From positions 16,253-80,252 of the IMG/VR virus record IMGVR_UViG_3300000956_000002: a stretch of 64,000 bases of DNA. The stretch is one strand, 5' to 3'. A program made the position numbers and the translations under genes. The notes under the pieces were generated by a model, which was not told the origin of the DNA, searched no databases, and was given only the letters and a program-made list of their open reading frames with translations. Positions 7,775 through 63,954 of this stretch are shown piece by piece; positions within the stretch are counted from its first letter, which is position 1, and every line of letters starts with the position of its first letter. Source of the stretch: a virus.

Positions 7775-8764
7775 ATGAGACTGATTCAAAAACTTATTTT
7801 GTGCCTGGCTATTGCTGTTCCTGTGCTCGGGGACGGGCCAAAGATTGCAGGCCGAGAATTTACTGAGTGGTTGAACGACTTTTTGGACACAAGTTCGTTG
7901 CTCCCTAAAAACGAAGGAATCGCAACCAGCTTGACAGTGGTCGGGTCAATTACCAATTTCGCGAAAGCTGAGATTACAACCACTACTCTATCGGGTTCGT
8001 CGATCACGCTCGATTGGACTGCTGGCGGAGAATACCGGCACACAATGGCCGCGGACACAACGTTGTCGTTCGCAAACTCCACCGGAACAAACCGAACAAT
8101 CGTTTTAAACGCCTACCCTGACGGCACACATAGCTACACTTGGCCTTCAGGGGTGATTCCACTGACGCTTACAAATCAACCTTTGTCGCAAGGTTTAACC
8201 AAAATCTATTTCGACAGGATAGATGGGACAAATTATTTGAGCGTCTCCCCGGAGCCACGCAAGGACAGGATGCTATTCACTGGACTTCAATTCAGTGACG
8301 GGATCGGTGCGGTCCCAAACACAAACGATTACACAGCCGTCACATTCATGCACTACAAGTTCAGTGGCACTGCGGCGACGAATGCGAATTACGGCGTTTA
8401 TCCAATTGTTCCGGTCCCAGACAATTTGAACACCAACGTCGCTCTGCGCGCGCGCTTGACGGTTCGGTTGAGCGGAACTGACACTGACCCATCTACTTGG
8501 AACTTAGGCGTTCAAAACGTATCAAATTCAGCGAGCGGGTCATTTGGAGGCGCCGGAAATTGGGTGTCAATCACCATGTCTGGAGATGCTTCTGGAGCCG
8601 CGAACGATCTTGAACGAAGTAGCTGGGTGACCCTTACCGGATGGGCGGGCGCGTTGACTGCTGGGCAATCGATGTTCGTTGTCCTTAACCGGAATGGGGC
8701 AAGCGACACTTCGAATGTTGGCGTCTGGGATGTAAACCTCGAACTGGAGTACGGCATCCAATGA
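7775..8764 (+). CDS. Signal-peptide-bearing tail-fibre-like protein
   Basis: MRLIQKLILCLAIAVPVLG signal; fibre-type segment ITLDWTAGGEYRHTMAADTTLSFAN. Confidence 0.6.
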   Translation: MRLIQKLILCLAIAVPVLGDGPKIAGREFTEWLNDFLDTSSLLPKNEGIATSLTVVGSITNFAKAEITTTTLSGSSITLDWTAGGEYRHTMAADTTLSFANSTGTNRTIVLNAYPDGTHSYTWPSGVIPLTLTNQPLSQGLTKIYFDRIDGTNYLSVSPEPRKDRMLFTGLQFSDGIGAVPNTNDYTAVTFMHYKFSGTAATNANYGVYPIVPVPDNLNTNVALRARLTVRLSGTDTDPSTWNLGVQNVSNSASGSFGGAGNWVSITMSGDASGAANDLERSSWVTLTGWAGALTAGQSMFVVLNRNGASDTSNVGVWDVNLELEYGIQ

Positions 8765-29367: not shown

Positions 29368-29745
29368 TTATTGGTTCACCGCGCGTTGCATCGGTTGTTC
29401 GTTCTGCGCTTCAGCGCCATCAACGACGGCGAACATTTCCGTCTGCTTTGGATCATCGCGCTGGAGCCCGCCATCCTCGGTGTCGAACATTGTCGTCGCC
29501 TTCGGATCGAGTTTGGGAACCTTCGGCTCACAAACAGCCGTGATTTCGATGGCGTCAGCGCTAGGCCGAAGCGTCATCTCAATTTTGAGTTTCCCTTTCT
29601 TGCCGGTTTTCCGAACTTGCTTCACAAGGTCGGCCAATGTCTGGCTCGCTTCCGCGACCAGCGCGCCACGCCGAAGTTCGCAAAGGGTTTTCGCGAACGA
29701 ATTCGACGGAGCAATTTCCGCAGGTGGAGTTTTACTGTTTTTCAT
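29368..29745 (-). CDS. Conserved phage protein usually preceding DUF2303
   Basis: VRKTGKKGKLKI..GGLQRDDPKQ. Confidence 0.65.
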   Translation of the reverse strand: MKNSKTPPAEIAPSNSFAKTLCELRRGALVAEASQTLADLVKQVRKTGKKGKLKIEMTLRPSADAIEITAVCEPKVPKLDPKATTMFDTEDGGLQRDDPKQTEMFAVVDGAEAQNEQPMQRAVNQ

Positions 29746-29819
29746 GTTTTCGAAAGTGACTACGGCTTACGGACCAAAAAGAAATGACTTGCGTAATATA
29801 CGAAACGATGTATCGTAAA

Positions 29820-30023
29820 TTACTTGGATGACGGTTTGCTCATCTCTTTGAGCATGTCCTTCTCATCCTTTGCGACTTGCGTGAGCACAGCACGATCACA
29901 ATACGGCCCGATAGATTCGCCTTTGTGTGCGGCGACAACGGACGCGCGTCGGTGCGTTTCCAGCGCAAGGTTGACTGTGATGTTTGGGTTCTTTCGTTCC
30001 TCAGCAGGGGTGAGCTTTCGCAT
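29820..30023 (-). CDS. Ribbon-helix-helix/Cro-like regulator
   Basis: ITVNLALETHRRA; divergent from the XRE gene. Confidence 0.55.
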   Translation of the reverse strand: MRKLTPAEERKNPNITVNLALETHRRASVVAAHKGESIGPYCDRAVLTQVAKDEKDMLKEMSKPSSK

Positions 30024-30039
30024 ATCGTTAAACGGACTT

Positions 30040-30054
30040 TCCGTAATTTACGGA
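30040..30054. promoter_or_regulatory. Palindromic operator TCCGTAATTTACGGA in the switch region
   Basis: 7-1-7 palindrome between divergent regulators; copies elsewhere in the window. Confidence 0.7.
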
Positions 30055-30093
30055 TTTACGTCAACACCTTTTTGAAGAAAATTTTTTAAGCCT

Positions 30094-30483
30094 ATGCCTG
30101 AAATCAATATAATCCTCAAACATGCCAGAAAATCGCGGGAATTAACGCTCGCACAGGTGTCGAAAGACACCGGAATACCACTCACGACACTGAACAGTTG
30201 GGAGCGCGGGGCGAATTTTCCGCGCGGGAAAAATCGGGAAATCATCGCGGAATACTATAAGATGCCGAAGGAATCGCTCGATTATTCGCTGGTGAACTCA
30301 TCTGGTGGCCGAGAGTTCGATATTGGGCAAATCTCGCAGGCCATGGCTCAATCTGAATACGAGACAAGGCCAGTGATGCTTCATAAGTCTTACTGGAAAA
30401 TGGCGGAAGATGTTCGAAAGAGCGCTGGCGACGTGGATTTCAATGAGATGTTCGCGCGGCTTCTGAAGGCTGAGAGCAAGTAA
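30094..30483 (+). CDS. XRE-family HTH repressor
   Basis: LKHARKSRELTLAQVS..TLNSWERG. Confidence 0.85.
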   Translation: MPEINIILKHARKSRELTLAQVSKDTGIPLTTLNSWERGANFPRGKNREIIAEYYKMPKESLDYSLVNSSGGREFDIGQISQAMAQSEYETRPVMLHKSYWKMAEDVRKSAGDVDFNEMFARLLKAESK

Positions 30484-30582
30484 GTAGGCATTCGGCCACG
30501 CGTTGGATTTTCCAGCAGAAGAAAGTTTCGATTTTCTCTTGCTTCGGAGTTTCCGTAGTATACGATTTACGGAAATTTACGC

Positions 30583-31056
30583 ATGGAGCCAATCAAGCCA
30601 ATAGCACCGCCAGAAAGTAAAGACGGAAAGTTTCTGTGGAGATTTTGGTCGAAAGTCGAAAGGAAAGGTGAATGTTGGACCTGGATAAAGCCGGCGATTA
30701 ACGGCTACGGATATTTTTGGTTTAAAGGGAAATGGATGCTGGCTCACAGGGTTTCGTATTTTCTAAAAACAGGAATTTTCTTAGACGGGCTCGTTCTTGA
30801 TCACTTGTGCAGAAACAGAGCTTGCGTAAATCCAGACCATCTTGAGCCGGTAACTCAGAGGGAAAATGTACTTCGCGGAATTGGGCCGGTCGCTAAGAAC
30901 AACGCTAAAACACACTGCAAGCGAGGACATCTACTCGAAGGGGAAAATCTCATCAGATGCTCTGCGTTGAAGGGGTGGAGGATTTGCAAGAAGTGCGTGG
31001 CGGAGAAGCAGTCAAAAAGATACTTCGAAAAAAAGAAACAAAAGAAACATGCCTGA
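30583..31056 (+). CDS. HNH endonuclease
   Basis: LAHRVSY..LDHLCRNRACVNPDHL; THCKRGH. Confidence 0.9.
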   Translation: MEPIKPIAPPESKDGKFLWRFWSKVERKGECWTWIKPAINGYGYFWFKGKWMLAHRVSYFLKTGIFLDGLVLDHLCRNRACVNPDHLEPVTQRENVLRGIGPVAKNNAKTHCKRGHLLEGENLIRCSALKGWRICKKCVAEKQSKRYFEKKKQKKHA

Positions 31057-32443
31057 AATACTTCAAGACGATCTCGAAACCGATTATCAAAAGTCGCTGG
31101 CCGTCATAGCGGCGGATAAGAAGGCGAGCGTCAAACATCTTCAGCAGCGGCTCAAGTTAAGTTACGGGCGAGCGGCGCAAATCATGGCCAAGCTGGAGCG
31201 GGATGGAATCCTGGCGCCACCGCAAAAAGGCCAGGCCCGTGAGATTTTGTTCGATAAAATCGATGCTTTACTGCTTTCGTCCGCGTCCCCATCCGAGGCT
31301 CCACGTGTTCTAGCCGACGATGGAAAAGTCAGCAATTCGACTCCACCTCAGGTTGATTCCCCTGAGGCACTGACAGGCGCGGACGCTTCTTTAGTGGGCG
31401 GGTGGCGGAATGGAGACGCAGCCCTAGAAAAGCGGGAGGGCACCCCTTCCGCAATCGCCGGAAACGAAACGGGTCGCTCCCAATGCGATACGGCGGTTGA
31501 AAAGGGGTCGCAATCAATTGCAGGTTCGAGTCCTGCCCTGTCCACCAATCCTATCAAGTTGTGCGTCATCGCATACCTGCCGAAGCCCAGCGAAAAATTC
31601 CATACGCTGGCGTTCCTCGAAAACCTGAAGCGCAATCCGCCGGCCCATGACCTCATCACGTTCAGCGATTGCCCGGATTTTGGTGAGTATGGGAAGCCGA
31701 CGGTGCGACTGGATTTGGAAGGCAAAAAATCGATCGAGGAATACTTCCCTGACTTGAAGGAGAAGGTTCACGGATTCGCCAACATTGCTTTCTATCTGGC
31801 CTTTTGCATCGCATGGAAAAACGGCTTCTCCCATTTCTTGTATGCCGAGATGGATTGCAGGTTTAGGAACAGAGGCCCGGATGGTTCGGTCAAGTGGGAC
31901 GAATTTCTCGTCGCTGAATTCCTCGACGCCCAGGACGAAAGGCCGGTCGAACTCGTCGTTGGCGGAACGATGATGGTGGATAATCCGTATCGATCTGACG
32001 CGGAGACAGCGCAACGAACGAAGGAGTTGCTGGCTAAGTGGAATCCGAATCTTACCAGCCGTGCTCCGAAGGAACGCAATAAGCCGATTGCCTGTCGAGC
32101 GCAACGAGGCGTCAAAGACAACACTTCGATGGTTGGCTGCAATGGCGCGGGAGCCGTTTACTCGGTTGCTGGACTTCGGGCGCTCTTTCCGGAAATCAAA
32201 AACTTTTCTGGCGCGACAGGGACCATAGCGACGTTCGCGAAAAACGGTTTGCCGTTCGATTGGGAAATCGCAAAACGACTTTGGTCAAGATACAAGTCCG
32301 CGGCCTTCGATTATGTCGCTCACCTGCCTTCAGAGTTCAGTTCGTTTGGTGACTCTGTTTCAACTGAGGACGAGCGGATGGACATGCTTAGAACGGCAAA
32401 GTGCGTTCTAGTTCATCCCGTTAAATCCCGCATTATTGAATAA
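31049..32443 (+). CDS. FtsK gamma-domain / glycosyltransferase-like fusion
   Basis: N-terminal ASVKHLQQRLKLSYGRAAQIMAKLERDGIL; C-terminal FLYAEMD (DxD-like) and LVHPVK. Confidence 0.6.
   Translation: MPEILQDDLETDYQKSLAVIAADKKASVKHLQQRLKLSYGRAAQIMAKLERDGILAPPQKGQAREILFDKIDALLLSSASPSEAPRVLADDGKVSNSTPPQVDSPEALTGADASLVGGWRNGDAALEKREGTPSAIAGNETGRSQCDTAVEKGSQSIAGSSPALSTNPIKLCVIAYLPKPSEKFHTLAFLENLKRNPPAHDLITFSDCPDFGEYGKPTVRLDLEGKKSIEEYFPDLKEKVHGFANIAFYLAFCIAWKNGFSHFLYAEMDCRFRNRGPDGSVKWDEFLVAEFLDAQDERPVELVVGGTMMVDNPYRSDAETAQRTKELLAKWNPNLTSRAPKERNKPIACRAQRGVKDNTSMVGCNGAGAVYSVAGLRALFPEIKNFSGATGTIATFAKNGLPFDWEIAKRLWSRYKSAAFDYVAHLPSEFSSFGDSVSTEDERMDMLRTAKCVLVHPVKSRIIE
31396..31547 (+). ncRNA. tRNA-like RNA with an enlarged variable arm
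   Basis: Acceptor GGGCGGG/CCTGTCC + A + CCA; Leu-type D arm; T arm GCAGG-TTCGAGT-CCTGC; no canonical anticodon loop. Confidence 0.7.
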
Positions 32444-33234
32444 TGAGCAAAGGATACGTCAGCTACAGACCGGAAGGACGACTTGGCAACGCGCTCTACC
32501 AGGCAAGCGCTGCAATGGCGTATGCGTGGGACCACGGCATGGAGTTTTCGATGCCTACGACCAGCCGTGATCCTAAATGGTGTCCTACTTATCTGCCGCA
32601 TTTGGCAAAGCCAGATTACGATCCGTCGCTGCCGGTGATCATGGTGGAGGAGCGCGGGTATCGGTTCCAAAAACTGCCGTGGGATGACCGCTGGAAAGAT
32701 GGGCACAACATTGTGCTGAACGGATTTTTTCAAAGCCCGAAATACTGGCAGCATCATCGCGATCGGATTTTGGAGTCGTTTGGCTTCCAGTGGCGCAAAA
32801 TGGAAATGTTTTGGTGTGCGGTGCATGTCCGTCGCGGCGATGCGCTTCGTTATCCAGAAAAACATTTGCTCCAAACGAAGGAATGGATCGAAGCGCAGAT
32901 GCGAAAGTTTCCGCATTACAGCTTTCGATTTTTCTCAGACGACTACCCATGGTGCCGCGAGCAATTCGGGCATCGCATCGACTGCTACTTCGATGATTTT
33001 CCGAGGTGCATGGAAGTCGCCGACGACCGTCCCGAAGTTCAAGACCTCGTTGACGCAGCGTGTTGTTCGCATTTGATCGGCAGTTCCTCGACGTTCGCGG
33101 CCTGGATTTATTTCTTAAATCGCAATCCCAACAAGCGCGCAATTTTCCCGAAGGAGTGGCTGAAAACCGGGTGGGAAGGAACGACACAGGAAACGTGGCG
33201 GGACGTGCTTCCAATGGAGGTCGAACGCGCATGA
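32443..33234 (+). CDS. GT11 alpha-1,2-fucosyltransferase-like protein
   Basis: GRLGN; GFFQS; AVHVRRGD; FSDD; SSTF. Confidence 0.85.
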   Translation: MSKGYVSYRPEGRLGNALYQASAAMAYAWDHGMEFSMPTTSRDPKWCPTYLPHLAKPDYDPSLPVIMVEERGYRFQKLPWDDRWKDGHNIVLNGFFQSPKYWQHHRDRILESFGFQWRKMEMFWCAVHVRRGDALRYPEKHLLQTKEWIEAQMRKFPHYSFRFFSDDYPWCREQFGHRIDCYFDDFPRCMEVADDRPEVQDLVDAACCSHLIGSSSTFAAWIYFLNRNPNKRAIFPKEWLKTGWEGTTQETWRDVLPMEVERA

Positions 33235-62258: not shown

Positions 62259-62452
62259 TTGTCGTCCACTATCTCTGTTCCGATGTTTTGGCCACGCTTA
62301 TTCAAGATTGTTCTAAGCCCGAACTCCACCCATATTCTCCCGTAAACTTTGCGGTTCTGCGCTGGGTAAGTGTCGTATTCAGTCGTTCCAAAATTAATAG
62401 CACTGATTACACAACTCCTCCCGTTTTCATCTGTGACTTTAAAGCCGATCAT
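62255..62452 (-). CDS. Small hypothetical protein
   Basis: Coupled to the integrase stop. Confidence 0.45.
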   Translation of the reverse strand: MIGFKVTDENGRSCVISAINFGTTEYDTYPAQNRKVYGRIWVEFGLRTILNKRGQNIGTEIVDDK

Positions 62453-63759
62453 GGTATCAAAACACCCGCCTTCTTCCCTTGTCCGCCCTTGGGTAATTCG
62501 ATTGGTGTGTTGCGGACTTTATCCGGCGTGAGCATTTCAAATTGTTCGCCCGTCTTGCGCCGCATGATGCCGCGATAGTGATCGTGCAGAATCTTCGGCG
62601 AGTTCCCGAGCATGCCAGCGACTTTCGTTTCGTTGTCGTCATATTTCCACATCAGGAACGACGCGCAGGTTTTACGAAGGATGTCTTGCTCCCATTTGAT
62701 GCCCGCGCGTTTGCAAAGCTTCTTGCGATGGCGCCGAATGCACTGGCGGACGGTGCGCATGGTTTTCTCGACTGCTTCGCCACGGCCCAGGCGGTCGCCT
62801 TTGGCTTCGCATTCGAAGATGTATTCGTATGGATATTTCGCAGTGGTATCGGCAGCCCCTTCAACTATTGGCTTCAACCACGCCATCAGTAACGGCTCGA
62901 TCTCAAAGCACCGACGCTGCCGCGTTTTACTCACGCCGTCCTCGATCACGATTTCACCGTCGTCCAAGTGAATGTCGCGCCACCGCAGCTTCTCCAACTC
63001 CTCCGGACGAATGCCGCCGAACAGCCCCAGCACAACGTAGGGCAGGAATTGTCGATCCGTCACACGACAAACCCAAAGCAGTTTCTCCGCTTGGTCCGGC
63101 GCGAGAATCACCGGCGTCTTGGCATCGACATACGGCATCTCGACGTGGTTCATCGGATTGGCCCCGGCTTCCAAATACGTGTTGTTCTTGCACGCCAGCG
63201 TGAACATAGCCTGCAATCGCGCGATCACCCCAAGCAGCGTTGAGCCCTGGGCTTGACCTTTGCCGCCCGGCCCTTTCTGGTTGGCGAGGAAATCCGTGAT
63301 CATGGCCGGCGTGACCTGATGGAGTGGCATCGAATCACGGCCGCGCGCAAATCGATCGAGAACAGATTTAAGGCTCGCGAGGTATCTCGGCCGCCGATTG
63401 CTCGTGGTCTTGGTCTGCATCGTGATCGTGATCATCTCGCGCAACGTGATCGTCCGATGTTTGGCTGCCCCACTGTTCGCCTTGTAGAACTCGGTGGCGC
63501 CACGGATCGTCGTGCCCAGATTGCGAAGCTCGGCTGCGCACACCATGATATCCACCTGCTCATAAGGTTTCAGCCGTGACCAAATGACACCGTGCTCTCT
63601 GTATTGGAATTTCGTCGATTCTTCAACAGACTCGGCCTCAGCCCTTGTCTTAAACCAAAGGCGCTCCCGCTTGCGCACGCCTCCCTTCGGCGGATGGTTG
63701 ATCACCAGTTCGAATCCAGGCTTCCCGCGGCGCTTTGTTTCGATGATATGGGATTTCAT
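62449..63759 (-). CDS. int: Tyrosine recombinase/integrase
   Basis: FGGIRPEEL (R), SKT (K), DILRKT, MLGNS, DHYRG (Y); start MKSHII. Confidence 0.9.
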   Translation of the reverse strand: MKSHIIETKRRGKPGFELVINHPPKGGVRKRERLWFKTRAEAESVEESTKFQYREHGVIWSRLKPYEQVDIMVCAAELRNLGTTIRGATEFYKANSGAAKHRTITLREMITITMQTKTTSNRRPRYLASLKSVLDRFARGRDSMPLHQVTPAMITDFLANQKGPGGKGQAQGSTLLGVIARLQAMFTLACKNNTYLEAGANPMNHVEMPYVDAKTPVILAPDQAEKLLWVCRVTDRQFLPYVVLGLFGGIRPEELEKLRWRDIHLDDGEIVIEDGVSKTRQRRCFEIEPLLMAWLKPIVEGAADTTAKYPYEYIFECEAKGDRLGRGEAVEKTMRTVRQCIRRHRKKLCKRAGIKWEQDILRKTCASFLMWKYDDNETKVAGMLGNSPKILHDHYRGIMRRKTGEQFEMLTPDKVRNTPIELPKGGQGKKAGVLIP

Positions 63760-63954
63760 GGGGTATTTGTCCGTTGTGCTACCGTTTGCTACCACTTTTT
63801 TCAAGCAAAAAATTACTGAATACGGAAATAAACGGAAACATTTGAAGTCGATAGCACAGCTTTGGGATGTGCGGCTCAGAGCGGAAACATTTGGCCCCGG
63901 CTACTTTTGAGTGGATTCGCCAATGAAATCGGGGTTTCCGTAATTTCTGAAGGA

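Follow-up and report, generated by a model that had tools for sequence, protein, structure and literature searches.

The stretch analyzed here, the window, covers 64,000 nt (bases 16253-80252) of a virus record that is complete at 80,252 bp and has direct terminal repeats. Its plus strand carries at 31049-32443 an open reading frame of 464 aa with three parts: an FtsK-gamma domain at aa 13-68 (Pfam FtsK_gamma, 2e-13), a linker at aa 79-166 that is predicted to be unstructured (pLDDT about 25), and a C-terminal domain at aa ~170-464 that was modeled from a deep alignment as a GT-A glycosyltransferase (GT) fold (pLDDT 93), with glycogenin, xyloside xylosyltransferase and blood-group transferases as its top structure matches. 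An HNH homing-type endonuclease gene (30583-31056, plus strand; Pfam HNH_3 1e-9, phrog_826 5e-48), mentioned as context only, overlaps the start of this frame by 8 nt, and GT11-like, FkbM and GT2-like genes lie downstream. Within the linker region is a tRNA-shaped element of 152 nt (31396-31547, plus strand), which encodes aa 116-167 of the host protein. An earlier note on this DNA had placed the element in frame, with no stop, in the linker between the FtsK-gamma and GT-like domains, and we found it to be so: the frame is open across the whole element, on the same strand, and the remaining two frames are closed.

A tRNA shape without an anticodon arm

The arms of the element, as read from the sequence, are those that the earlier note had described. 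The acceptor stem (5' strand GGGCGGG at 31396-31402, 3' strand CCTGTCC at 31537-31543) forms all seven of its pairs, including the wobble pairs G3.U70 and G5.U68, and is followed by the discriminator A73 (31544) and an encoded CCA (31545-31547). U8 and G9 (31403-31404) stand directly 5' of a Leu-type D arm (31405-31419) with a 3-bp stem, G13.A22 and the short loop AAUGGAG, in which A14 and G18G19 are present; the T arm (31520-31536), GCAGG-TTCGAGT-CCTGC, has 5 bp and a canonical TTCRA loop. All 15 stem pairs are intact, while the canonical anticodon arm (5-bp stem, 7-nt loop, U33, anticodon) is absent. When these three arms were fixed in folding, a 99-nt insert took its place, running from a 5-bp hairpin GCCCU/AGGGC (31421-31441), whose purine-rich loop of 11 nt lacks U33, through a long nested hairpin (31442-31508; 7 bp, 9 bp and a tip helix) that makes up the bulk of the insert, its 'cargo', to a single-stranded joiner of 11 nt (31509-31519) whose last base is U48. 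This fold reproduces exactly the replaced anticodon arm that had been drawn for the element, and an RNA read in this way from its sequence cannot decode. The giant variable arm that had also been proposed, with its nested hairpin, appears in the same fold, but that fold is one of two of equal energy; in the second, GCCCU pairs with GGGGU (31504-31508) and encloses two hairpins. Folded alone, the insert is modestly more stable than its shuffles (z -2.2, 22/1000).

Rfam and ARAGORN, which had been suggested as checks, agree with this anatomy. The Rfam tRNA model RF00005 matches 31396-31544 at 31.5 bits, weakly above its gathering threshold of 29, and its alignment has 92 nt standing in place of the 17 anticodon-arm positions. 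No other Rfam family matched the element up to E = 10, and neither bacterial Y RNA (YrlA) nor any other Rfam tRNA mimic matched either the window copy or the 12 related loci described below, at which RF00005 alone was found, in weak matches only. ARAGORN at default settings found no tRNA and no tmRNA; with introns allowed, the element was its sole prediction in the whole 80,252-bp genome, which has no other tRNA gene. What ARAGORN then reports is a 'tRNA' with a 57-nt intron, and GCCCU/GGGGU could serve as an anticodon stem closing the insert, as would be expected of a true decoding Leu-type tRNA whose anticodon loop is restored by intron removal. We consider such a tRNA extremely improbable: the predicted anticodon and intron positions shift with the ARAGORN settings, giving Arg(gcg) or Phe(aaa); no excision yields a loop of 7 nt that contains U33; in length the insert falls far short of group I introns, and it has no Rfam intron or ribozyme match; and in two relatives of the element (L027 and L054, below) the corresponding stem is capped by a GNRA tetraloop, hence leaving no anticodon.

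The insert itself is not repeated within the genome and matches it in antisense no better than expected by chance; it is neither a repeat nor a mobile element there. Insert words were not found in IMG/VR. The segment 31473-31504 may resemble type I-C CRISPR repeats; the idea of a CRISPR-repeat mimic was dropped since the segment is buried in a 9-bp helix. At the genome end is a tyrosine-integrase-like gene (62449-63804, minus strand; phrog_1, 5.5e-24), given which the phage may be temperate; an attP reading of the element was rejected, the integrase gene being ~31 kb away and the whole tRNA shape being present rather than a 3' fragment.

A recurrent family of tRNA-Leu-shaped RNAs

The 18-nt D-arm word of the window copy, TGGCGGAATGGAGACGCA, proved identical (18/18) in about 12 other tRNA-shaped elements. 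It occurs exactly in four other IMG/VR contigs, each time within an element that has a paired acceptor, a T arm and, instead of an anticodon arm, a long middle part. A metagenome scan with the word returned 28 loci, about half of them tRNA-shaped shell elements, and GTDB genomes gave three elements only; a scan with a 16-mer of the D arm added one degenerate member (L006) amid random coding matches. This makes about 13 distinct elements in all, from contigs of viruses, metagenomes and, in a few cases, bacteria; their inserts span 22-150 nt. None of the 13 is a normal tRNA-Leu and none has an anticodon loop. Exact acceptor and T-arm words of the window copy had no match in IMG/VR. Members were found by the exact D-arm word, so part of the D-arm constancy follows from the search itself; this does not apply to the paired stems, to U48 or to the missing anticodon loops.

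An alignment of 12 members from which the window copy was excluded shows acceptor and T helices that are 99.4% paired, with compensatory changes on both sides at 11 of 15 pairs; none of 500 shuffles reached these values, and slid controls were 33-45% paired. Both the acceptor and the T helix of the window copy thus have counterparts that covary across the family. The base preceding the T stem, U48, is T in 12 of 12 aligned members as it is in the window copy, and A73 is found in 9 of 13. From the same 12 members, again with the window copy left out, we built a covariance model, R1, which gives the window copy 60.0 bits (E 5.5e-17), against 31.5 bits from the Rfam tRNA model, and matches nothing else in the window. 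Because the model had not been built on this copy, its score excludes a chance origin of the tRNA shape, and the window element is one of a recurrent family of phage RNAs. Searching with R1 also turned up further long tRNA-shaped genes beside seed elements.

The other members are intergenic or lie in arrays, often among ordinary tRNA genes, whereas the window copy sits deep inside a 464-aa ORF. No neighboring protein is shared across the 13 loci, and blastn against cultured phages matched only the T arms of ordinary tRNAs. Inserts are unrelated between members (that of the window copy has no detectable similarity to those of nine others), with one exception: L004:8125-8175 and L005:602-656 on the minus strand (L005b) share a 24-nt insert block (21/24; 0/200 shuffles), and despite this block their acceptor and T stems differ, L004 being GC-rich and L005b AT-rich. 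Such sharing suggests that inserts move between frames. Intact arms combined with free middles across the family argue against uniform decay.

Several members have features of their own. In L027:2297-2368, L041 and L054:4771-4844 the frame takes a 71-nt form, its anticodon stem lengthened and capped by a GNRA tetraloop (GGAA or GGCA); these members have no anticodon at all, and stem changes between the copies are compensatory. L054 is in an alphaproteobacterial MAG, and one tetraloop-capped copy is on a 279-kb bacterial contig. The inserts of L038:462-607 (minus strand) and L039:4851-4977 (plus strand) open with a mini hairpin of 4 bp and a 3-nt loop, AGGU-NNN-ACCU, and contain a second T-arm-like hairpin; the outer T stem of both, GCAGG/CCTGC, is that of the window copy. 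At L004:8106-8342 a frame that starts from an ATG in the D arm crosses the element, in phase with the SD-ATG of the downstream gene at 8217.

Aminoacylation identity and known tRNA-like RNAs

Leucine identity in Escherichia coli is read by LeuRS from A73, A14, A15-U48, G18G19-U55C56 and U54-A58, the anticodon not being included (PMC6614811). What the family conserves, namely A14, A15 with U48, G18G19, the T loop and mostly A73, corresponds to this set (PMC6614811). Class II bacterial tRNA-Leu shares the D arm and all of these with the window element, which differs in its 99-nt insert, in having no anticodon loop, and in a D loop two bases shorter than that of the canonical Leu D arm at L002b, a shortening that could affect recognition by LeuRS.

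Alanine identity, which the earlier note had proposed, fares less well. G3.U70 and A73, the AlaRS determinants, are both present in the window copy, but they are not what organizes the family, in which just one member of 13, the window copy, has G3.U70. Because it is unique to this copy, alanine identity would be at most a local addition and not the logic of the family. Acceptor helices carrying G3.U70 are charged by AlaRS, and with A73 and the encoded CCA in the sequence an alanine-specific tRNA mimic can be envisaged, acting as an aminoacyl donor or tmRNA-like molecule. We judge this very unlikely: besides the rarity of G3.U70, the second wobble in the same stem, G5.U68, fits two C-to-U changes that merely kept pairing, and no aminoacyl-tRNA-dependent transferase was found among the neighbor genes checked. 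Features of tmRNA were likewise sought in vain with ARAGORN and in Rfam to E = 10. The window element does share with tmRNA the G3.U70 pair, the T arm and the replacement of the anticodon arm by a large domain, whereas it has a full D stem and neither a tag reading frame nor a pseudoknot series. Taken by its sequence features, the element may be chargeable, keeping those read by bacterial LeuRS and adding G3.U70 for AlaRS.

Among described phage RNAs the closest in form is RNA1 of phage T5, annotated together with RNA2 as 'tRNA-like stable RNA with unknown functions' (AY543070 misc_RNA 30501-30644 and 32959-33083). T5 RNA1 resembles the window element in its acceptor-like stem, its Leu-type D arm (GCCGGAATTGGTAGACGG), its T arm (GAAGG-TTCAACT-CCTTC) and its non-anticodon middle, of ~85 nt. 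It differs in standing free in a tRNA region and in a Leu D loop of the canonical 9 nt; the short D loop, G3.U70, the encoded CCA and the place within an ORF set the window copy apart. R1 matches T5 RNA1 at 33.5 bits, and because canonical class II tRNAs reach a similar score we place it, by sequence, as a looser relative of the family. Species 1 RNA of phage T4 (rnaC, 139 nt) is likewise a small stable RNA encoded in a tRNA cluster; its T arm is canonical and its acceptor partly paired, but it has no Leu-type D arm, and the R1 match, of 21 bits, is confined to its 3' part. A homing-type endonuclease gene adjoins the tRNA-shaped RNA at our locus, as also in the tRNA and stable-RNA regions of T4 (segB, L046) and T5 (hegC, L064).

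Nesting in the protein linker

Relatives of the host gene were compared as proteins only, no relatives of the locus being found in viral, metagenome or genome contig collections. Five of them (P0002-P0005 and P0007) have the same architecture, and the FtsK-gamma/GT fusion is real. The GT domain is in most of its relatives a separate protein of 250-290 aa, and the linker is therefore plausibly, and we think probably, a former intergenic spacer. An in-frame TTG at 31559-31561, 12 nt past the element, comes just before CVIAYLP, where the stand-alone GT homologs start; no Shine-Dalgarno sequence is evident there, and an internal translation start at this TTG is only a speculation.

The linker is poorly conserved among the homologs, with one correspondence. 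The peptides VAGSNPALGPT of P0004 and IAGSSPALSTN of the window protein are both in-frame readings of a T arm plus 3' acceptor strand, and on back-translation both are T-arm-feasible at the same alignment column and codon phase, against a background of 8e-4 feasible sites per nt. (Threading a whole cloverleaf through back-translated linkers was too permissive, with 30 of 133 T-arm-feasible sites passing, and only the T-arm test was kept.) P0002 has a shifted and doubtful T-arm site, and P0003 and P0005 have none. Such a pattern suggests, without proving it, that the nested element is old and was lost in some lineages. Since three of the five close fused homologs (P0002, P0003 and P0005) lack a clear tRNA imprint, the element may be dispensable for the host protein and may be decaying in the fused-homolog lineage. 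Two further GT relatives of two-domain architecture, P0089 (aa 316-322) and P0107 (aa 322-328), have the T-arm-feasible peptides DEGSNPS and DEGSSPS in a conserved linker, which may reflect another nested tRNA-like element.

Such missing imprints bear on a serious if unlikely rival, that the window element is a recently inactivated relic: an intergenic RNA gene of the family (or a tRNA) swallowed by gene fusion, now serving only as linker coding sequence, its good arms reflecting how recently function was lost. Linkers without a clear tRNA imprint (P0002, P0003, P0005 and P0009), or with only degenerate T-arm-like peptides (P0002 and P0007), fit such a history, as do the failure by hand to thread a D stem through P0004, the insert without relatives, and the standing of the element as the only tRNA-like gene in its genome. 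A relic would nonetheless have had to keep 15 of 15 stem pairs, U48, A73 and CCA, together with an 18-nt D-arm word identical to that of members in unrelated phages, in a weakly constrained disordered linker that would not be expected to keep such arms; and the frames of the other members are equally intact while their middles differ. Because the intact arms, the identical D arm, U48, A73 and CCA sit in a linker of this kind, they argue for selection on the RNA. We therefore hold it to be fairly probable that the element is an anticodon-less, leucine-tRNA-shaped RNA gene of the recurrent phage family, in frame within the unstructured FtsK-gamma/GT linker. Most likely, judging from these features, it is a working family member that now shares its DNA with the protein linker.

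Family members combine a constant frame of acceptor, short Leu-type D arm, U48 and T arm with a variable structured insert in the place of the anticodon arm. For a working member we infer the following course. No sigma-70-type promoter or intrinsic terminator consensus was found within 29500-33000, for which reason the element would most likely be transcribed within the operon mRNA. The folded element would then be cut out by RNase P and 3'-end enzymes as a stable RNA of about 150 nt that ends in CCA. Because these cuts would also separate the coding sequences of the two protein domains, the RNA and the full-length protein would be alternative products. It is conceivable, and in our estimate quite unlikely, that the nested shell works as a switch in which this processing frees a chargeable (Leu and/or Ala), non-decoding RNA and severs the FtsK-gamma/GT message, letting the phage alternate between making the fusion protein and making an RNA effector, such as a decoy for those host enzymes or defense nucleases that recognize the tRNA elbow and acceptor end.

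Alternative tRNA and protein products have been proposed for selC (tRNA-Sec) nested in the selB ORF, which is translated in frame and has left remnants in some relatives (Mukai 2021, PMC8124441). There, as in the window, the coding strand contains an entire tRNA-shaped gene in frame, with no stop; selC is a canonical decoding tRNA in the C-terminal extension of a bacterial gene (PMC8124441), and the window element an anticodon-less RNA between two domains, in the linker of a phage gene. What is new in the window copy is its in-frame position within a protein gene, its G3.U70 and its encoded CCA.

Tied together in one molecule, G3.U70 and the Leu-type elbow lead to two concrete charging assays. 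Present as a single copy in a complete 80-kb genome that has no other tRNA gene, the element is also a clean test bed, and because of this its RNA role and its protein role can be separated by synonymous or structure-breaking changes. Stable tRNA-shaped RNAs of phages have been familiar since the T4/T5 era and, to our knowledge, no function has been assigned to them; nor do we know of published in-frame sharing between a tRNA gene and an ORF other than that of selC in selB. The window copy indicates that the gene of such a tRNA-shaped RNA and the coding sequence of a protein linker can occupy the same DNA in frame.
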